64,000 nt of DNA. Source: Patescibacteria group bacterium (GTDB taxonomy: Bacteria; Patescibacteriota; Microgenomatia; Levybacterales; UBA12049). Shown here piece after piece: positions 1,335 through 50,990 of the stretch (position 1 is the stretch's first letter; each line of letters opens with the position of its first letter). A program made the position numbers and the translations under genes. The notes beneath the pieces are model-generated. The model was not told the DNA's origin and did no database searches. It saw only the letters and a list, made by a program, of their open reading frames with translations. The stretch covers positions 43,029 through 107,028 of the forward strand of contig JBBTTO010000003.1 of assembly GCA_038064195.1 (NCBI GenBank), written 5' to 3'.

Positions 1335-1670
1335 TTATGATGACAATTTGATACTGGCTCCGCGTCCGTTCAAACGTAAAAAAGGGTCTTCCATCGAGAA
1401 ATTTTTGGCCGGGTTGATCTTGGCTCGCATTGCTCCATTCGGATCAGCAGCCCTTGTATTGGGAGTATAGTCTTTGTTAAATTCATTGAGATCTTTTTCT
1501 CTGATTCTGATGGCACCGCCAACCTTAAGTGCTTTGAGTCGTCCTTCTTTGATGTAGCGGCGGATTGTTAGGGGGTGGACCTTCAAAATAAAAGCAGCTT
1601 GATTGACATTAAACAGATTATCCATTGCTAAATTGCTAAATTGCTGATAACAATTTAACACTTTAATCAT
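1335..1670 (-). CDS. Excisionase/MerR-type HTH DNA-binding protein (HTH_17-like); possible antitoxin partner of the PIN gene
   Basis: FNVNQAAFILKVHPLTIRRYIKEGRLKALKVGGAIRIREKDLNEF matches the excisionase-family helix-turn-helix pattern. The true start may be the internal Met (MDNLFNV, about 1625). A paralogous motif occurs at 6825-7040. Confidence 0.55.
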   Translation of the reverse strand: MIKVLNCYQQFSNLAMDNLFNVNQAAFILKVHPLTIRRYIKEGRLKALKVGGAIRIREKDLNEFNKDYTPNTRAADPNGAMRAKINPAKNFSMEDPFLRLNGRGASIKLSS

Positions 1671-3227: not shown

Positions 3228-4106
3228 ATGAGCGATTTTACCTTTTTAAAAAACGCGGTTACTAAAAAATGGGTTATCTCAGCCCCAAGGCGTGCTAAAA
3301 GGCCTGACGTCGCCAACGGCACTGAGCCTGCCTGTCCTTTTTGCCCTGAACATAAGGAAGATGCTGAGCTCTATCGTGTCGGAGGAATACCCAGTGATGC
3401 GGGTTGGCAGATACGAGTTGTTGCGAACAAATTTCCTTTTGCTCCGATTCATGAGTTGGTCATTAATACGCCGGATCATCATAGCTCCTTTGATAATTTT
3501 ACGATTGAACAAATTCAGACTATCCTCCAGACGTACAGGCATCGTTTTAACGAGCATCATCATGCAGGGCAGGTCTATATCTTTCATAATCACGGTGAGA
3601 AAGCAGGGGAGAGCATCCCACATTCTCATACCCAGATTGCAGTCGTACCAGAAAAAGTATTTTTGGATATTCCACGACTCCAATCGGTAATTGAGGATGT
3701 GCCTCAAGGCTTGACGACTAAGCATTTTACCATCTTTTGTCCTACGACGTCAGTTTGGCCGGACGAGGTATGGGTGGCGCCCAAGGTATCAGGGAGACTT
3801 TTTGGCGAGATCACCGACGATGAGATAGGGGATTTTTCAGGCATTCTTTCCAGCCTGACTAAGATCTTTGATCTCAGGTATAACAAGGATTTCCCCTACA
3901 ACTTTTATCTCTACCCGGGTGGGGACTGGTATTTCAGACTCATTCCCAGACTCAAGACACTAGGTGGTTTTGAGGTGGGGACCAATGTTTTTGTAAATAC
4001 GCAAAAGCCACAAGAGACTATGGAGTTTATCAAAGAACACTTCAAAGAGCCTAACTTTGAAAAGATTATGAAAGAGCACCAAGCCGAATACCACCGCACT
4101 GTCTAG
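3228..4106 (+). CDS. Galactose-1-phosphate uridylyltransferase-like (GalT/HIT superfamily) nucleotidyltransferase
   Basis: Zn-site CPFCPEH and the HIT-like HSHTQ (HxHxQ) motif, with GalT-like spacing. 292 aa. Confidence 0.6.
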   Translation: MSDFTFLKNAVTKKWVISAPRRAKRPDVANGTEPACPFCPEHKEDAELYRVGGIPSDAGWQIRVVANKFPFAPIHELVINTPDHHSSFDNFTIEQIQTILQTYRHRFNEHHHAGQVYIFHNHGEKAGESIPHSHTQIAVVPEKVFLDIPRLQSVIEDVPQGLTTKHFTIFCPTTSVWPDEVWVAPKVSGRLFGEITDDEIGDFSGILSSLTKIFDLRYNKDFPYNFYLYPGGDWYFRLIPRLKTLGGFEVGTNVFVNTQKPQETMEFIKEHFKEPNFEKIMKEHQAEYHRTV

Positions 4107-4257
4107 GAGTTAGATATTAGTTGTTAGAAGTTAGTTTTCTAACTAATCACTAATTCCTAATAACTAACTGCTAAACAGGCCTATAGTTGACTTCTTTGAG
4201 GCTATCAAGTACAATTCTCTTATTCATCCCAGTTAGGGATGTTTTGTCTTTCAGCAA

Positions 4258-4719
4258 GTGAAAGAGAGGTTTGTCATGGCTCTCGGATTTGGGCAAAAGC
4301 ACAAAGGGTCGGTCACCCTCCAAATGACCATCCCAAACCGCGAGACACACGATGCTCGCGTCGTCGTGCGGTTCGTGCAGATCAACGGCGTGAATACCTA
4401 TGGCAAGGAGGTCACTTTGGTGATCACCTCGTCAGAAGGGCGTCGGATGTGGTTGCCGGCATCTGTTGGCGATTTCGTCATTGAGAAGCGAGCGACTGCG
4501 ACGCATCTTGTCCCGAAAGGGGCGAAGGCGGAGGTCTATCTGGATGTGATGGGCGATTTCTTTTCGCCAGAGTCCAGATCAGGGACGACTCATGTCACAG
4601 TGCAGGTGCAAGTCGACGGCAAGCTGATCAGCAGCAAGCCGATTCTCGATGTCGTTTTGAGGCGTGATCCTCGGTTTGGCAGCGAGCGGATTGCTCGTGA
4701 GACATTTTCCAGAGCTTGA
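4258..4719 (+). CDS. Hypothetical protein (first ORF of the GC-rich island)
   Basis: 153-aa ORF in a region of clearly higher GC (about 55-60%). No recognisable motif. A likely start is MALGFGQ. Confidence 0.35.
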   Translation: MKERFVMALGFGQKHKGSVTLQMTIPNRETHDARVVVRFVQINGVNTYGKEVTLVITSSEGRRMWLPASVGDFVIEKRATATHLVPKGAKAEVYLDVMGDFFSPESRSGTTHVTVQVQVDGKLISSKPILDVVLRRDPRFGSERIARETFSRA

Positions 4720-5086
4720 ATGAAGGGTAAAGCTAGGAGGCACTAGGGCGACCTGCCCGCAATGCTACACATAGCGTTGCAGGCGGGGAAAGCCAACTGG
4801 TTTGGGATTGTCCGCCTATGGCGAGACGGTCTCAGGGCAGCCGTGCCTCCGGCTTCGCCAAGTCTGACTTGGCTTCGCTTATATCTTTGCACATTAACAC
4901 AACTCATAGGGAGTTATCCCGCTTACAAGCAGGATAGGGTTCTTCATGGAAGTCTCATATGCATGACTCTCCATTGATGAGCACCATAATTTGTTTGTAG
5001 TGGGATCGTCTCTCTGTGAATCTATATGATGGAACTGTCTGCGACAGCCTAGAGGTAAGCATACTTACTTCTCGGGTGTTGCAGGC

Positions 5087-5497
5087 ATGCGCTTGCAGCC
5101 TAACGCTCAGCATTTACTCCAAAGGGAGGAGTGGATTATGAAAGCTTCAGAGCTCGCGGATGAGCTGATCAAAATGGGTGTCAGGTCGGTGCCGTTTAAG
5201 TATCGTGAGACGCTCGCGGGACTGGTCGAGTGCGGCGGTGACGATTGGAAGTTAACGCTCGTGGTCATCCGAACTGCCGTTGAGCTACTTAACGCGAAGT
5301 CGCTGGTCGGCATCGATGAGTCGAATCTGTTGGCCGCCTTGGTTTTCCCAGACCGGTTGGAAGAGCTTATCCAGACGCGTGGATGGGCGGTCACCCTCAC
5401 CGGCGCCTTGCCTCTTGCGGCGTTCAGGTTGGCAATCTTCCTCTACATTCAGGATCGCAAGCCGGGCTTCAACGTCCACCGATCATCAGATTTCTAA
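5087..5497 (+). CDS. Hypothetical protein (GC-rich island); likely start MKASELADEL at about 5137
   Basis: ORF with coding-like composition. No recognisable domain. Confidence 0.3.
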   Translation: MRLQPNAQHLLQREEWIMKASELADELIKMGVRSVPFKYRETLAGLVECGGDDWKLTLVVIRTAVELLNAKSLVGIDESNLLAALVFPDRLEELIQTRGWAVTLTGALPLAAFRLAIFLYIQDRKPGFNVHRSSDF

Positions 5498-5859
5498 TTC
5501 CATCAGCAACTTCACAGATGACGATTGGCCGACTCCATCGAGAGTCGGCCGCGTCCCATGTATTTGAGCTCCTTCTCAAATCTATGGAGCGGACAAGTGT
5601 ACTTTAACAGTTTAGCTTCATAAGGAGTTATCTGGATTTAAGCGATAGGAGAAAAGAGATAAGCAATAAGGAGTTGACTATATGTTAACTTATCACTTGT
5701 TGCTTCTTGCTTATTACTTACTTCCAGATCGTCTCCTTATGAACCCCGATTTAATTGGGGTCAACTCAGATTTTTGTCTGACGACGGCTTTTTGTCTCTT
5801 AAAGACAGGAGATAGGAAGCCGTCGTTAGGTACGACGTAGTAGTCTCTCTCGCTCCCGC

Positions 5860-6114
5860 TTGCGGGATAGGAGAAAGGAGCGGACAGGTATGCCCACCGA
5901 GGCAGAGTTATTCTGGTTTCCAAAGGTTCGTAAGAGGTTCCTCGATTGGATCGAAGGGCCAAACGGCGAAATTTGTTGCGCCGGATTCTCTCCGATGTCC
6001 AAGCACGCGGAAAGGTTGGGTCAGCTTGAACGTTTCGCCCGAAACCTTCCAAGCAGATACGAGAAGGTCGTATCGGTTCTGGCGAGTCAGCCGACCATGA
6101 GGAGTAAGTCTTAG
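5860..6114 (+). CDS. Hypothetical small protein (GC-rich island)
   Basis: 84-aa ORF. The internal start MPTEAELF is possible. No motif recognised. Confidence 0.2.
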   Translation: MRDRRKERTGMPTEAELFWFPKVRKRFLDWIEGPNGEICCAGFSPMSKHAERLGQLERFARNLPSRYEKVVSVLASQPTMRSKS

Positions 6115-6122
6115 TATTCGAG

Positions 6123-6533
6123 TTGGGGTGGACAGCTTTGCGGCAAAAGCCGATCAAGAAGGGGTTAGCAATGCAAGTCTGGGTTCCGGCTCGCCGACGA
6201 TTTCCTCAAGGAAGGGGTCACGGGATCATGAGAACTCGAACGACAAGGCTTCCGCTAACGGCTGAACAAGCCGCGGAAGCTGCAGAAAGAACTCAGGTTC
6301 GCCGCCTAGCCGATCAAATCGAGCGAGACCAAGCTCGAATCGCCGAACTAACCAGCCGGAACTGTCATCGGCGGAACGACCGCAAGTTTCTTCGTGAGTG
6401 CTCGATTCGCTCCGAGGCTAACCTGCAACGGCTTGCTGTAGTTCGCCCCGAACACCCGTTGATTACGGGCAAAGCCCGATGCAAGCGCAAGCGTCGCGCG
6501 CGCAATGGGAACTGGAAGCGCAACAAGAACTGA
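6123..6533 (+). CDS. Hypothetical basic protein with an Arg/Lys-rich C-terminus (GC-rich island)
   Basis: 136-aa ORF ending ...KARCKRKRRARNGNWKRNKN. Two hairpins follow it immediately. Confidence 0.3.
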   Translation: MGWTALRQKPIKKGLAMQVWVPARRRFPQGRGHGIMRTRTTRLPLTAEQAAEAAERTQVRRLADQIERDQARIAELTSRNCHRRNDRKFLRECSIRSEANLQRLAVVRPEHPLITGKARCKRKRRARNGNWKRNKN

Positions 6534-6552
6534 GTTCTAAGAGACGAGGAAA

Positions 6553-6580
6553 GGCCACGTCAAACGTGGCCCCCTGAATC
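6553..6580 (+). terminator. Tandem hairpins GGCCACGT-caa-ACGTGGCC and CCCTGA-a-TCAGGG followed by a T-rich tract
   Basis: Seen directly, 20 nt after the stop of 6123..6533. The second hairpin is followed by taaagttttt. Confidence 0.4.
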
Positions 6581-6596
6581 AGGGTAAAGTTTTTGG

Positions 6597-6720
6597 CTCG
6601 AGGGTACACGGTCCCGATGCAAATCGGGGCCACCAGTCAGTCGACACCCATGCTACAAAGGCGTAGCCGGACGGCGTCGTCAGAGTGGCCGTACCCTCGG
6701 CCTCGCTCTTTTGCTTTTAA
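6597..6720 (+). other. Structured non-coding element: 9-bp long-range inverted repeat (ctcgagggtac ... gtaccctcg) closing about 100 nt, then hairpin GGCCG-taccct-CGGCC plus TCGCTCTTTTGCTTTT
   Basis: Seen directly. It resembles a small RNA with its own intrinsic terminator at the right edge of the GC-rich island. Confidence 0.3.
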
Positions 6721-6824
6721 GATTTTTGAAAGTAGAAAAGTGAGGCTAATATAGGGACAAATGATATCCTTGAGTAGTAGTTTGATCTGGATCAAAATGA
6801 AGGCAATGATGGGGGAGAAGTAAG

Positions 6825-7040
6825 CTAAACAGTACCGCTTTTTTCTTGAATTCCCAAAAGCCAAAGGACCGCTTCTTTTTTGTAGCGGCGGTCACCGCGG
6901 GAGTTGATACGGATGGCGGGGAGTTTGCCTCTTTTGCCCCAGCGTTTGATAGTCAGGGGAGAGACTCTGAGAACTTCGGCTACCTCACGTACTGTTAGGA
7001 GATCTGGTAGGTCGTTGATTGATATCTTTTGATCGGTCAT
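6825..7040 (-). CDS. Excisionase-family HTH DNA-binding protein (HTH_17-like)
   Basis: LLTVREVAEVLRVSPLTIKRWGKRGKLPAIRINSRGDRRYKKEAV. Same family signature as the 1335..1670 protein. Confidence 0.55.
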   Translation of the reverse strand: MTDQKISINDLPDLLTVREVAEVLRVSPLTIKRWGKRGKLPAIRINSRGDRRYKKEAVLWLLGIQEKSGTV

Positions 7041-7149
7041 AGCCTGAAGAGTATTGCTTAGATAATCATTATGATGGTTACCTGCTAATAAAGTAACAAA
7101 CTATAACATCTATGTCAATGCCCTATAACTTTTTGGATGAGCAAAATAC

Positions 7150-7404
7150 CTAATTGGGGAGGACTCCAAGCAGCACGGTAACTTCATCATTAACAACTGA
7201 AAGCATCCCGCGCGTTACATCGTAGGATTTTTTTTCGCCGGGGAGATGGATTTCAACTTTGTTCAGGATAAGGGAGATAAAATGCTCATGTCCTGACAGA
7301 ATATCAAATGATCCTTTCTCATTGCGAGAGGAGACAGCCTCAGCATCTCCGGTAAATAATACGCCGGTTCGATCATGAACAGTAACTTTAAGAAATTGTG
7401 ACAT
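7150..7404 (-). CDS. atpC: F-type ATP synthase epsilon subunit (short form)
   Basis: 84 aa immediately downstream of beta. The N-terminal beta-sandwich pattern (LKVTVHDRTGVLFTGDAEAVSSRNEKGSFDILSGHEHFISLI) resembles epsilon. Confidence 0.7.
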   Translation of the reverse strand: MSQFLKVTVHDRTGVLFTGDAEAVSSRNEKGSFDILSGHEHFISLILNKVEIHLPGEKKSYDVTRGMLSVVNDEVTVLLGVLPN

Positions 7405-48839: not shown

Positions 48840-50990
48840 ATGAAGAATCTCGTTATCGTTGAATCACCTACAAAAGCCCGTACCATCAGCCGTTTTCTGG
48901 GTGATGATTTCGTGATCAAATTTTCCATGGGTCATATTATGGATCTCCCCAAAAGTACCCTGGGCGTTGATGTAGACCATGATTTCAAACCCGAACTTCA
49001 GGTAATCAGTGACAAGAAAAAAATTATTTCAGAACTTAAGGCTGCTGCCAAAGGTGCAGATCGTATTATATTGGCAACAGACCCTGACCGTGAGGGGGAA
49101 GCAATCGCTGCAAACATCAGAGAAGTTTTAACTGAAAGTCGAAAGTCGAAAGTCGAAAGCCGTAAATTTTCTCGGATTGTTTTTCATGAAATTACTGAGG
49201 GGGCCATTAAAGATGCGGTAGAGCATCCGAGGGACGTTGATGTGAATTTAGTCAATGCACAGACTGCGCGTCGTATCTTAGATAGATTGGTCGGTTACAA
49301 ATTATCTCCTCTTCTCTGGCAGAAAGTCAGACGGGGCCTATCTGCCGGACGCGTACAAAGTGTTGCCTTGCGTTTGATAGTTGAGCGGGAGCGGGAGATA
49401 CAGAAATTCACCAAAGAACCGTATTGGACGATTCATGCCCTTCTTCAGAAGATTGCGAAAGGGACAAAAAAGACAAAGCCTGCCCGCAATGCTACGTATA
49501 GTGTTGCAGGCGGGGAGACCGAGGTCGAATTTGAGTTGCAGACAATCGATCAAAAAAAGATAGAGGAGTCTCAGTCTTTTGAATTATATGATGGTACTTA
49601 TAAGATCAGTAAGACGATACTCGATACTACTGAGAAGGCTGATGAAATAGTCCTGGACATGCAGAAACGCCGCTTTGTCGTTGCTGATGTCGCGGAAAAG
49701 CAAGCAAAGAGAAGTCCATACGCTCCTTTTACCACATCCACACTGCAGCAGGATGCCTCACGGAGGTATGGATTCTCCGGTAAGCGGACCATGAGCCTGG
49801 CGCAGAAATTATATGAAGAAGGCTTCATTACCTATCACCGTACAGATTCGACTACGTTATCACCTGTGGCTATCAATCAGATCCGTACTTTTGTGCAAAA
49901 AGAATATGGTGACAAGTATGTGCCTGCGTCTCCACGCCTCTATCTGACCAAGCAAAAATCCGCGCAAGAAGCGCACGAAGCAATTCGTCCGACTAAATTC
50001 GGACCACTCAATACAGGACAGATGCAATCTGTTGAGGAATCACTCGGTAAAGAGTGCGCTCGACTGTATGAGTTGATCTGGCGACGGGCAGTCGGATCAC
50101 AAATGGCTGATGCCTTGATCCAATCGACCACAGTCTATGCCGATACCAAAGATGCCGGTAAACAATATCGTATGAAGGCATCGGGATCAGTGCTACTTTT
50201 CGATGGTTTTCTGGTCATTAATCCGCAGGCGCTTCAGGATAGAAAATTACCTGTCTTTACGATAGGCGACGAGTTGAATGTTAAGAAGGCCTACGGAGAC
50301 GCGCACGAGACACCGCCCCCGCCTCGCTATAATGACGCGTCAATTATCCAAACACTTGAGGAAAAGGGTATCGGCCGTCCGTCTACGTATGCCTCAATTA
50401 TCTCAACACTTGTGGATCGTGCCTATGTTGAGCGGGTAGAAAAGCGTTTTGAAGCAAGCGCTATCGGGAGTGCCGTGAATGATTTCCTCGTTAAAAATTT
50501 TTCAGATATTGATGATATCCCCTTTACCGCTTCGATGGAGGACAGCCTGGATCTGGTCGCATCAGGTGAGAAAGAGTGGGTAAGTATGATGAAGGATTTT
50601 TATGCTCCTTTCTCAAAGAAGCTTATCGAAGTTAAGGATACAGAGCGAGTCAAAATTGAGACAGAGAAAACAGGTGAAAAATGTCCAGAATGCACGGCAG
50701 ATCTGGTCATAAGGACCGGAAAATTCGGTAAATTCGTCTCGTGCAGTCGCTTTCCCGAATGCAAGTATACAAAACCACTGGTTGAGGAGACCAATCTACC
50801 GTGTCCTAAAGATGGAGACCTGCCTGCCGGCAGGCAGGGAAGAATTATTGTTAAGAAAACCCGTAAGGGCCGTAAGTTCTATGGCTGCTCGAATTATCCG
50901 ACCTGTACCTTCGCTAGCTGGACCCGCCCGACTTCGCCTGCGAGCGAACTCGCTGGCGGGCGGGAATTAGAGGATATAAAGAAAGAATAA
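48840..50990 (+). CDS. topA: DNA topoisomerase I
   Basis: Toprim start MKNLVIVESPTKARTISRFLG. Active-site ITYHRTDST. Two C-terminal C4 zinc ribbons (CPECTADL...CSRFPECKY and FYGCSNYPTCTF). Confidence 0.9.
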   Translation: MKNLVIVESPTKARTISRFLGDDFVIKFSMGHIMDLPKSTLGVDVDHDFKPELQVISDKKKIISELKAAAKGADRIILATDPDREGEAIAANIREVLTESRKSKVESRKFSRIVFHEITEGAIKDAVEHPRDVDVNLVNAQTARRILDRLVGYKLSPLLWQKVRRGLSAGRVQSVALRLIVEREREIQKFTKEPYWTIHALLQKIAKGTKKTKPARNATYSVAGGETEVEFELQTIDQKKIEESQSFELYDGTYKISKTILDTTEKADEIVLDMQKRRFVVADVAEKQAKRSPYAPFTTSTLQQDASRRYGFSGKRTMSLAQKLYEEGFITYHRTDSTTLSPVAINQIRTFVQKEYGDKYVPASPRLYLTKQKSAQEAHEAIRPTKFGPLNTGQMQSVEESLGKECARLYELIWRRAVGSQMADALIQSTTVYADTKDAGKQYRMKASGSVLLFDGFLVINPQALQDRKLPVFTIGDELNVKKAYGDAHETPPPPRYNDASIIQTLEEKGIGRPSTYASIISTLVDRAYVERVEKRFEASAIGSAVNDFLVKNFSDIDDIPFTASMEDSLDLVASGEKEWVSMMKDFYAPFSKKLIEVKDTERVKIETEKTGEKCPECTADLVIRTGKFGKFVSCSRFPECKYTKPLVEETNLPCPKDGDLPAGRQGRIIVKKTRKGRKFYGCSNYPTCTFASWTRPTSPASELAGGRELEDIKKE

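Follow-up and report, generated by a model that had tools for sequence, protein, structure and literature searches.

A GC-rich island of ORFan genes and structured intergenic RNA in a variable slot of Candidatus Levyibacteriota genomes

The GC-rich island described here lies within a 64-kb window (the whole stretch of DNA that was analyzed) and may represent a lineage-specific, cassette-like operon in a hypervariable slot flanked by a GalT-like gene and an HTH gene, a reading that we hold with evenly balanced confidence. Its mRNA would carry conserved cis-acting RNA modules, and its ORF cassettes would turn over. The predicted transcript would start at a sigma-70-type promoter, pass through a leader hairpin with a U-tract, and carry four ORFan genes with ∼1.3 kb of sense-strand RNA structure between them. 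The features of the island and its immediate flanks are as follows.

4104..4173, plus strand: left-flank hairpin, 66 nt, AT-rich and near-perfect (fold -25 kcal/mol, z -4.7)
4180..4215, plus strand: island promoter, CCTATAG-TTGACT-17 nt-TACAAT (10 of 12 consensus positions)
4225..4251, plus strand: leader hairpin with U-rich tract (terminator scan)
4276..4719, plus strand: ORF1, 147 aa, beta-rich, with Shine-Dalgarno (SD) site AGAGAGG (GC at codon positions 1/2/3 of 0.58/0.43/0.65)
4730..4858, plus strand: A element, predicted three-way-junction RNA closed by GGAGGCAC/GUGCCUCC (z -7.0)
4857..4873, plus strand: short hairpin GCCAAGUCUGACUUGGC
4904..5022, plus strand: LH1, long hairpin of 119 nt (z -6.3; covariance model 109.8 bits on the plus strand)
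5035..5089, plus strand: hairpin in the 5' leader of ORF2
5116..5132, plus strand: hairpin ACUCC...GGAGU, pairing with the SD site of ORF2
5138..5497, plus strand: ORF2, 119 aa, helical, with a hydrophobic C-terminal helix
5527..5550, plus strand: GC-rich hairpin downstream of ORF2
5618..5745, plus strand: LH2, second LH copy, 128 nt, with an AT-rich apex (z -7.6; 102 bits on the plus strand, 29.8 on the minus strand)
5744..5829, plus strand: two hairpins in the ORF3 leader (5744-5760 and 5778-5829)
5851..5882, plus strand: hairpin CGCUCC...GGAGCG, pairing with the SD site of ORF3
5890..6114, plus strand: ORF3, 74 aa, small family F3, with a homologue in L028
6171..6533, plus strand: ORF4, 120 aa, Arg/Lys-rich, with a predicted coiled-coil, a basic tail, and SD site AAGGGG
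6553..6584, plus strand: two short hairpins, the second followed by a T-run
6595..6718, plus strand: A' element, predicted three-way junction closed by CGAGGGUAC/GUACCCUCG, with a T-tract (z -5.0; terminator scan)
6781..6796, no strand assigned: palindrome TTTGATCTGGATCAAA, in the gap that separates the island from the HTH gene (3' end)
6825..7040, minus strand: gene for a 71-aa HTH_17/MerR_1 protein, the slot neighbor (HTH_17 match 1.7e-10)

The island is set apart by its base composition. GC content is 52.9% (0.529) in 4216-6720 and 44.0% (0.440) across the remainder of the window, and this interval is the GC peak among 2.5-kb stretches (mean 0.443, sd 0.025 across the 64 kb); the second independent peak is 0.484. 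The shift thus agrees with the original prediction, although the predicted figure of about 55–60% was slightly high: 300-nt windows of the island range from 0.52 to 0.57, and its ORFs from 0.53 to 0.58. The shift in GC and GC3 is limited to 4216-6720, and GC3 is 0.65–0.70 in ORF1 and ORF2, compared with 0.41–0.47 in the flanking genes. An AT-rich interruption, expected at about 5600-5720, is present at 5601-5800 (GC 0.36) and corresponds to the apical portion of the 128-nt hairpin LH2. Non-coding DNA makes up 1,326 of the 2,718 nt of the ∼2.7-kb island.

The promoter at 4180..4215 is the sole strong promoter site in 3900-7300. An extended form of its motif, TATAGTTGAC-N17-TACAAT, is found once in each of seven loci of five genomes, every time where the island begins (the window, L019, L022, L023, L025, L026, and L028), with a variant in L015 and L016. 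The leader hairpin that follows (stem 4225-4241, then TTTTGTCTTT) has the stem and U-tract of an intrinsic terminator, and L019 and L028 possess an equivalent hairpin and U-tract in which the stem sequence is different. This promoter-proximal structure looks like an attenuator or a terminator. On the other side of the promoter, the left flank, earlier described as a TAACT/AGTTA-rich stretch, is the AT-rich 66-nt hairpin; it begins at the stop codon of the GalT-like gene, is without counterpart in L028 or L022, and is probably a terminator or insulator of that gene.

Downstream of the leader, four small ORFs are encoded on the plus strand, each with an SD site. The reading frames originally listed (4258-4719, 5087-5497, 5860-6114, and 6123-6533) all exist, but their starts required revision, as ATG codons preceded by an SD site fit better and give 4276-4719, 5138-5497, 5890-6114, and 6171-6533. 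Public gene calls adopt the revised starts for ORF1 to ORF3, and include for ORF4 the 120-aa product from 6171 as well as a 101-aa call from an internal ATG. The description of the four products as unannotatable and free of recognizable motifs was upheld, with no match in Pfam, PHROGs, PADLOC, or PDB sequences, and this ORFan cargo is very rare in databases.

Coding periodicity occurs in ORF1 and ORF2. The sole true homologue of ORF1 is P0004, encoded on L019 (47–50% amino acid identity), and the coding parts of these two genes have no detectable nucleotide similarity; the AF2 model of ORF1 is all-beta, at low confidence (pLDDT 50). ORF3 is 45% identical to a 75-aa ORF of the L028 island (E 8e-13), which itself weakly matches a 60-aa ORF on L019 (E 1e-4). 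On this sequence evidence ORF1 and ORF3 are real genes, and ORF2 is probably one. The GC content of ORF4 at codon positions 1/2/3 is atypical (0.64/0.53/0.55), and its position corresponds to that of the basic F4 proteins of L028, to which homology is undetectable; its coding status is doubtful and the least certain of the four. Any role of the cargo in strain-specific interaction or defense would be a guess. A type II toxin-antitoxin pair formed by ORF3 and ORF4 was considered, but Pfam, PADLOC, and PDB gave no match to a known toxin or antitoxin family, and the resemblance amounts to two small adjacent genes.

The original suggestion of structured RNA is borne out between the genes, where three intergenic stretches fold at z -8.9, -8.7, and -6.6, with the ORFs near background, and the sense strand of the island folds much better than the antisense strand. 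Hairpins predicted at 5527-5549, 5741-5760, and 5778-5830 were found at 5527-5550, 5744-5760, and 5778-5829. Beyond the last structure of the island, the palindrome is conserved in part in L015 and L016.

In two of the intergenic structures, LH1 and LH2, a basal stem of 10 bp leads to an invariant, asymmetric UU/CGU internal loop, above which a second stem carries an apex that varies (∼30–90 nt). The fold is common to five copies from three genomes (96.7% of cells paired), and the base reads TCATARRGAG...CTCYYTRTGA in all five. Both sides have changed in nine of 18 pairs, compared with 0–2 such pairs in slid controls, a covariation statistic that is weak because the alignment consists of five sequences from three related genomes, whose relatedness alone can exceed shuffle controls. 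Matches to the LH covariance model are confined to islands (77–112 bits for the sense strand, 25–32 bits for the antisense strand), and G-U pairs make the coding (top) strand of LH the better folded one. In L028, an LH hairpin lies directly after the leader terminator. Inspection of the sequence revealed no target-site duplications at the LH copies.

The A architecture, a three-way junction, occurs in six copies from three genomes, in which the arm sequences are unrelated. In the 206 kb searched (the 64-kb window and ∼140 kb of related loci), the closing motif of A is confined to islands, and no LH was found outside them either. The placement of both elements with respect to stop and start codons is fixed across three genomes. 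The first arm of A in the window, a 36-nt hairpin at 4752-4787, recurs in frame within topA (49479-49516) at 92% identity. Hairpins similar to this arm were also observed in intergenic DNA of L014. At the 3' end of the island, where an inverted-repeat element with a terminator had been proposed (6597-6720), A' is indeed predicted to form a three-way junction, with CGAGGGUAC/GUACCCUCG as its closing stem and a T-tract behind it. Its closing stem (6687-6702, then TCGCTCTTTT) has the form of an intrinsic terminator, and the element is 77% identical to the corresponding element of L028 across 97 nt; A' is the predicted operon terminator. Neither A nor LH had a match at gathering score in Rfam 15. 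Searching the island up to E 10 returned only chance miRNA/snoRNA matches, and the related islands gave a single chance miRNA match in L026, far under the gathering score.

The slot, with the GalT-like gene on one side and the HTH gene on the other, is found in a clade of Candidatus Levyibacteriota, and comparison among these relatives shows that it is occupied in some and vacant in others. GC-rich ORFan islands are present in the same slot in L015 and L016, L022 to L025, and L028, and the island of L026 is on the opposite side of the HTH gene, after a LytR_C gene. The site is empty in L029 and filled by ordinary low-GC genes in L017 and the P0030 contig. GC and GC3 are raised in every island, in hosts of 39–46% GC. 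The cargo ORFs differ almost wholly among relatives, while the promoter with its leader hairpin and U-tract, the A element, and the LH hairpin are conserved. Order also varies: a cassette of the ORF3 family leads the L028 island and stands third in the window. L016, which is ∼90% identical to L015, has ∼1.8 kb of extra island DNA, and repeated CCAGGTAC...GTACCTGG terminators border its gene modules. In L019, the promoter-ORF1 module is preceded not by GalT but by another island-type module, and a terminator comes before the promoter and ORF1, an order that could also be compatible with a free or mobile element. Because the islands of relatives occupy the same site and have the same promoter and RNA elements, the region looks, at the level of sequence, like a conserved locus with rapid turnover rather than a one-off or decaying insertion.

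An alternative that we regard as unlikely is that the island is a site-specific integrated mobile element, or the remnant of one, which targets the GalT-HTH slot in Levyibacteriota and has its own base composition. This would fit the GC and GC3 elevation of all islands over their hosts, the rarity of the ORFan cargo, the empty site of L029, and the permuted module order of L019, which a circular or tandem form could give. The original prediction had likewise proposed a phage or plasmid remnant, a reading that is partly supported: the composition shift, the ORFan cargo, and the variable occupancy of the slot favor it, but mobility genes, att sites, and phage or plasmid similarity were not found. 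No integrase or recombinase (Pfam families) was called within 10 kb on each side of the island, no recombinase family was found in or near the L022 and L028 islands, and integrase, relaxase, and replication genes are absent in or near any island. Flanking att-like direct repeats were not found, and the repeats that span the island are short, of low identity, and attributable to chance. Comparison at the DNA level with 50,697 phage and 72,556 plasmid records found nothing similar, and viral-contig collections gave no match. The dinucleotide signature does not look foreign either, being no outlier (delta* 76, compared with 53 ± 15 for host chunks). Finally, the island is at one site in all public copies of the source genome, with no presence polymorphism.

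The HTH gene, originally taken as an excisionase-type boundary, further weakens the case for a mobile element. Its HTH_17 domain is real, but the protein has 6,595 homologues (E<1e-10) and is 94–99% identical in close relatives in which GalT is only 59–77% identical. In most cases the gene is linked to rplJ-rplL, and it also occurs in loci without an island, where it adjoins an empty site or ordinary genes. By this distribution it is a core Levyibacteriota gene, and a neighbor of the slot rather than island cargo.

Less probable again is an integron-like cassette array (a CALIN, or cluster of attC sites without an integrase) in which the LH hairpins would serve as attC sites for some recombinase. 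Co-oriented small ORFan genes behind a single promoter, content and order that vary among relatives, and the conserved base, unpaired spacer, variable terminal structure, and attC-like length of LH are all features of such arrays. However, a tyrosine recombinase is absent within 10 kb, and the R''/R' core sites (RYYYAAC/GTTRRRY) are absent in five of five LH copies, flanks included. Moreover, attC recombines via the bottom strand, whereas LH folds best on the coding strand; some cassettes end without an LH, and the several further intergenic structures are unlike compact integron cassettes.

We attach a slim probability to the view that the intergenic structures are not functional RNAs but selfish palindromes, akin to REP, MITE, or Rickettsia palindromic elements, that have built up in a dispensable region under little constraint. 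The recurrence of an A arm in topA, together with the similar hairpins of L014, is what such repeats would produce, and LH, which is present twice in the island, ends in inverted repeats of 10 bp. Nevertheless, LH and the closing stems of A are island-only within the DNA searched and their positions are fixed with respect to stop and start codons, foldability is strongly strand-biased, compensatory changes keep the pairing, and LH copies are without target-site duplications.

Of 13 public contigs from varied samples and assemblers, 11 match the island region perfectly (100% identity), and the remaining two, L009 and L012, are 99.2–99.8% identical, with mostly indel differences; the 13 contigs with matching island junctions include one of 1.08 Mb and long-read-type assemblies. 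The GC-rich patch in the source genome is not an assembly artefact. A chimera or contamination from a GC-richer organism, to which the contrast in composition with the flanks might point, is negligible as an explanation, given that independent samples and assemblers yielded the same junctions in 13 contigs and that related genomes have islands at the same site.

In the cassette-like operon that we favor, the RNA modules would work in cis on a polycistronic mRNA, with A after cistrons, LH ahead of the next cistron, hairpins that pair with SD sites, and A' at the end. LH may be a processing or protein-binding hairpin, by analogy with the RNase III sites of phage T7, and A may protect 3' ends. 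The leader and anti-SD hairpins could gate transcription and translation, and the shared promoter, RNA-element, and terminator DNA would provide homology for the gain, loss, and reordering of ORF cassettes. The persistently high GC3 is without explanation in this cis-regulatory model, and an additional assumption is therefore required, namely that gene conversion is biased at a recombination hot spot or that DNA is repeatedly imported from donors richer in GC.

A bolder proposal, which we consider improbable, is that LH and A are the defining parts of an undescribed cassette system of the Candidate Phyla Radiation (CPR), in which a fixed expression platform captures, reorders, and expresses ORFan cassettes. 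The platform would consist of the conserved promoter, the leader terminator, and the neighboring universal HTH protein, and the system would be a functional analogue of an integron that uses other sites and relies on a different recombinase or on RNA-level chemistry. Lasting GC enrichment would then be the footprint of very frequent recombination.

CPR genomes are ∼1 Mb and tightly packed, and ORFans form a large share of them; the source organism, a groundwater bacterium, devotes 2.7 kb, half of it non-coding, to this slot, and its relatives hold the locus in place while swapping nearly all of its proteins. The locus is a testable case of strain-level gene novelty in ultra-small symbionts without recognizable mobile-element machinery. 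LH and A are two candidate RNA families absent from Rfam, with early covariation support, and should the hairpins prove to be signals for recombination or processing, they would offer handles for many more loci and for the function of CPR ORFans.

Each of several known systems resembles the island in part. A prophage or integrative remnant with an excisionase (Xis/HTH_17) would share the HTH_17 "excisionase family" neighbor, the atypical composition, and the ORFan cargo, but here the HTH gene is core and found without the island, and integrase, att sites, and phage or plasmid similarity are lacking. The 36-nt hairpin of A, with its further occurrences in frame within topA and between genes of a related genome, is reminiscent of Rickettsia palindromic elements and REP/BIME sequences, although the likeness is limited to this one small hairpin, and LH and the A junction are island-only. 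Antitermination RNAs (HK022 put, EAR) also place a structured RNA after a strong promoter, and the island might be compared with them for its immediate terminator-like hairpin and internal terminator-like structures; there is no sequence or Rfam match to them, and such a role is conjectural. Integron arrays and CALINs share the small, mostly ORFan, co-oriented genes under one promoter, with variable content and order, and the imperfect hairpin of ∼120 nt between cassettes, with its conserved base, unpaired spacer, and variable apex. The island differs from them in having no nearby IntI or RYYYAAC/GTTRRRY sites, a better folded sense strand, extra structures (A and the leader hairpins), and cassettes that LH does not follow in every case.

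RNase III sites of the T7 R1.1 type lie between cistrons and have two stems, lower and upper, separated by an asymmetric internal loop. The RNase III hairpins of T7 early mRNA, and stabilizing stem-loops, are approached by the island in its long intercistronic two-stem hairpins and its structured 3' ends after stop codons, a resemblance by analogy, as there is no sequence relation, LH is longer and has a smaller internal loop (2/3 nt), and the host is a CPR bacterium. Flexible genomic islets, lastly, also occupy a slot amid core genes, filled with differing, atypical, and mostly hypothetical genes and empty in some genomes. The islands described here are 1.2–2.9 kb, are without mobility genes, and depart from that pattern in that the promoter and RNA scaffolds are kept and the ORFs alone turn over.

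Between the genes for a GalT-like HIT-family protein and a 71-aa HTH protein of this Candidatus Levyibacteriota (CPR/Patescibacteria) genome from Hainich groundwater, GC content is 0.52-0.57 in 300-nt windows. The mean for this island (4216-6720) is 0.529, compared with 0.440 in the remainder of the window, and is the highest 2.5-kb value present (mean 0.443, sd 0.025), the next independent peak being 0.484; the GC-rich patch of the original prediction is therefore real, although its figure of 55-60% was slightly high. Besides a contig of 1.08 Mb, a dozen more public contigs carry the window DNA. The island is not a chimera, because 11 of 13 independent contigs carry this stretch at 100% identity and the other two (L009 and L012) at 99.2-99.8%, with differences that are mainly indels. 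Non-coding DNA makes up 1,326 of 2,718 nt, which is extraordinary for a CPR genome, and we found no description of such a locus in the literature. A second, longer HTH_17 protein (111 aa; 1335-1670, minus strand) is encoded 2.5 kb upstream of the island, adjoined by a 141-aa ORF without a family. The features of the island and its neighbors are as follows:

3228-4106, GalT-like HIT-family gene, left neighbor
4187-4215, promoter TTGACT-17-TACAAT, the sole strong promoter in the region and the predicted start of the unit
4225-4251, leader hairpin and U-tract, 3' of the promoter
4276-4719, plus strand, ORF1, ATG start with Shine-Dalgarno sequence
4730-4858, A element, three-way junction with closing stem GAGGCAC/GUGCCUC, just 3' of the stop codon
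4904-5022, LH1, 119-nt long hairpin
5138-5497, plus strand, ORF2, ATG start with Shine-Dalgarno sequence
5618-5745, LH2, 128-nt long hairpin
5890-6114, plus strand, ORF3, ATG start with Shine-Dalgarno sequence
6171-6533, plus strand, ORF4, ATG start with Shine-Dalgarno sequence
6595-6706, A' variant, closed by GAGGGUAC/GUACCCUC and followed by a T-tract, the predicted end of the unit
6825-7040, minus strand, 71-aa HTH gene, right neighbor

The four ORFs lack recognizable motifs, as had been predicted, with no matches in Pfam, PHROGs, PADLOC, or PDB sequences. ORF1 and ORF2 matched only themselves among 5.8 billion proteins, and a full HMMER scan of 1.84 billion representatives yielded one true relative of ORF1, P0004 (47-50% identity), encoded on the 1.4-kb contig L019. 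The giant repeat proteins P0003, P0005, and P0007 were treated as repeat- or composition-driven matches. Two further candidates, P0001 and P0006, were rejected as frameshifted calls from error-prone assemblies of the window's own genome: contigs L009 and L020 (ENA ERZ1286166) carry many single-base indels, as in a long-read assembly, and these produce the false homologs. ORF3 has a homolog of 75 aa in the L028 island (45% identity), and this ORF in turn weakly matches a 60-aa ORF on L019. Public gene calls use the same starts for ORF1, ORF2, and ORF3, and for ORF4 the protein collection contains two versions, the 120-aa product and a shorter call from an internal start. GC3 of ORF1 and ORF2 is 0.65-0.70, compared with 0.41-0.47 in neighboring genes, with an otherwise normal coding signature; by codon-position GC, ORF3 is intermediate and ORF4 atypical. 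A single-sequence structure model of ORF2 is helical and fairly confident (pLDDT 72), and its structural neighbors were uninformative. The codon-position GC, Shine-Dalgarno sites, and protein-level homologs lead us to reject spurious ORFs in GC-rich DNA as an explanation for ORF1-3, and we conclude that these are real, fast-evolving proteins; whether ORF4 is a real protein is uncertain.

The three intergenic stretches are strongly folded (z-scores of -8.9, -8.7, and -6.6), while a sliding scan placed the ORFs and flanking genes near background. The plus strand folds far better than the minus strand (e.g., -9.7 vs. -2.9), which points to structure in a sense RNA using G-U pairs. Each LH is built from a 10-bp base (UCAUARRGAG/CUCYYURUGA), an invariant UU/CGU internal loop, a second stem, and a variable apex; the AT-rich interruption noted earlier within the patch is the apex of LH2. 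When the five LH copies are compared, base pairing holds in 96.7% of cells, and both sides have changed in 9 of 18 pairs. Slid controls yielded 0-2 pairs of this kind, and none of 500 shuffles reached the count of 9. A covariance model detected no LH outside islands in 206 kb, and scored the sense strand three to four times higher than the antisense. The closing motif of A is likewise restricted to islands, and its six copies share one junction fold with unrelated arms (z -5 to -9.6). The predicted element with a terminator at the island end corresponds to A' and its T-tract. The Shine-Dalgarno sequences of ORF2 and ORF3 are paired within smaller hairpins. Rfam, at gathering thresholds and at E up to 10, gave no real match to LH, A, or any other island structure, and on these grounds we rejected the idea of one large ncRNA of a known type (rRNA fragment, group I/II intron, GOLLD/ROOL/OLE, ribozyme). 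An LH pattern scan of a metagenome collection recovered only the window's own genome, and neither the LH 3' arm nor the promoter motif was detected in scans of viral contigs.

Loci in several other Levyibacteriota were located by scanning genomes with the GalT-like protein and by looking up HTH homologs. The GalT-HTH slot holds GC-rich stretches of 1.2-2.9 kb in L028, L022-L025, and L015/L016 (island GC 0.50-0.54 vs. 0.41-0.46); in L026 the stretch lies beyond the HTH gene, on its other side, after a LytR_C gene. The site is empty in L029 (GalT-HTH distance 300 bp) and holds ordinary low-GC genes in L017 and the P0030 contig. The island-bearing relatives share a non-coding scaffold. In the window, L019, L022/L023/L025, L026, and L028, each locus has exactly one copy of the extended promoter TATAGTTGAC...TACAAT, placed where the island begins, and L015 and L016 contain a variant of it. 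A leader hairpin and U-tract are found again in L019 and L028, but there the stem differs in sequence. One LH is present in L022/L025, two in L028, and a 3' half at the contig end of L019, while A and A' number two each in L022 and L028; the conserved RNA elements are so far limited to three or four genomes, all close relatives. By contrast, hardly any island proteins are related from one genome to another. Proteins of the L019-type element are singletons, and no distant homology was found between ORF4 and the basic F4 proteins of L028, between the ORF1 family and a 230-aa family of L016, or between ORF2 and a 142-aa ORF of L028. L022 and L025 differ by 23 SNPs in 3.1 kb, too few for population dN/dS.

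The cargo is also rearranged between loci. In L028 the leading cassette is the ORF3-family gene with its basic partner, a pair that comes last in the window. ORF1 has first place in the window, and in L019 lies downstream of another island-type module. The region upstream of ORF1 (promoter and 5' UTR) is 78% identical over 94 nt between the window and L019, and is more conserved than the coding part, which has no detectable nucleotide similarity. L015 and L016 share about 90% identity, and the island DNA is about 1.8 kb longer in L016. The gene modules of L016 are flanked by repeated terminators (2531-2565, 3303-3335, and 4070-4120) with a common CCAGGTAC...GTACCTGG stem and a T-run, each closing a promoter-ORF module. 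Two paralogous small proteins with KGG stress-protein repeats (PF10685; L016 3457-4056), missing from L015, are the sole island cargo anywhere with a Pfam match. The promoter spacers of L015 and L016 contain TAGCCTCAA, and its reverse complement, TTGAGGCTA, lies at the corresponding place in the window and L019; this motif may be an operator.

The HTH gene had been taken for an excisionase marking the island boundary, which is not borne out. The protein (HTH_17/MerR_1) has 6,595 homologs at E<1e-10, its gene also occurs at island-free loci, and its usual neighbors in relatives are rplJ-rplL. Its identity is 85-99% across Levyibacteriota, and 94-99% in genomes where GalT is only 59-77% identical. 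Its behavior is that of a core regulator or a nucleoid protein, not of an excisionase. The motif ATAAAGTAACAAACTATAACA upstream of the gene (7085-7110) is almost invariant. In L029, 1.4 kb of AT-rich DNA without called genes (4601-6001; GC 0.28-0.37) separates rplL from the HTH gene. Near-gathering matches to the L10 leader (RF00557; 41 and 39 bits vs. a gathering score of 44) occur at L016 6694-6811 (minus) and L022 4767-4962 (plus), and are probably genuine diverged CPR versions because they are positioned upstream of rplJ.

We favor the interpretation of the island as a lineage-specific hypervariable operon, in which selection has conserved the promoter and the mRNA structures, since the alternatives fall short. 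The intergenic structures could be selfish repeats, and one small hairpin (4752-4787) does recur elsewhere, but within the 206 kb searched the fit is limited to that hairpin. An integron-like cassette array is attractive, since the ORFan cassettes are co-oriented and the hairpin combines a conserved base with a variable apex, but this reading fails on the recombinase (none within 10 kb), the core sites, and the strand that folds. A mobile element, or the phage or plasmid remnant originally predicted, lacks its defining parts, with no integrase within 10 kb, no att repeats around the island, no similarity to phages, plasmids, or viral contigs, a dinucleotide signature inside the host range, and a core gene in place of the boundary excisionase. 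In a hypervariable operon, the conserved promoter and RNA sequences could double as recombination anchors for cargo turnover. Judging from their architecture, LH may serve in processing or protein binding, A may protect the 3' end or act in termination, and the leader and anti-Shine-Dalgarno hairpins may work as gates. The lasting GC3 excess falls outside this model; it may come from gene conversion that is biased at a hot spot of recombination, or from DNA imported repeatedly from GC-richer donors.

The recurring hairpin forms one arm of the A element (4752-4787). A GC-rich hairpin of 36-38 nt (CCTGCCCGCAATGCTAC..GTTGCAGGCGGGG; 49479-49516) with 92% identity to this arm lies in frame inside the topA ORF (48840-50990), where it encodes KPARNATYSVAGGE within topoisomerase I, and similar hairpins occur in intergenic DNA of another Levyibacteriota genome (L014 15115-15148 and 15217-15251). 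It looks like a small palindromic element able to insert into genes, and in this apparent capacity it resembles the Rickettsia palindromic elements.
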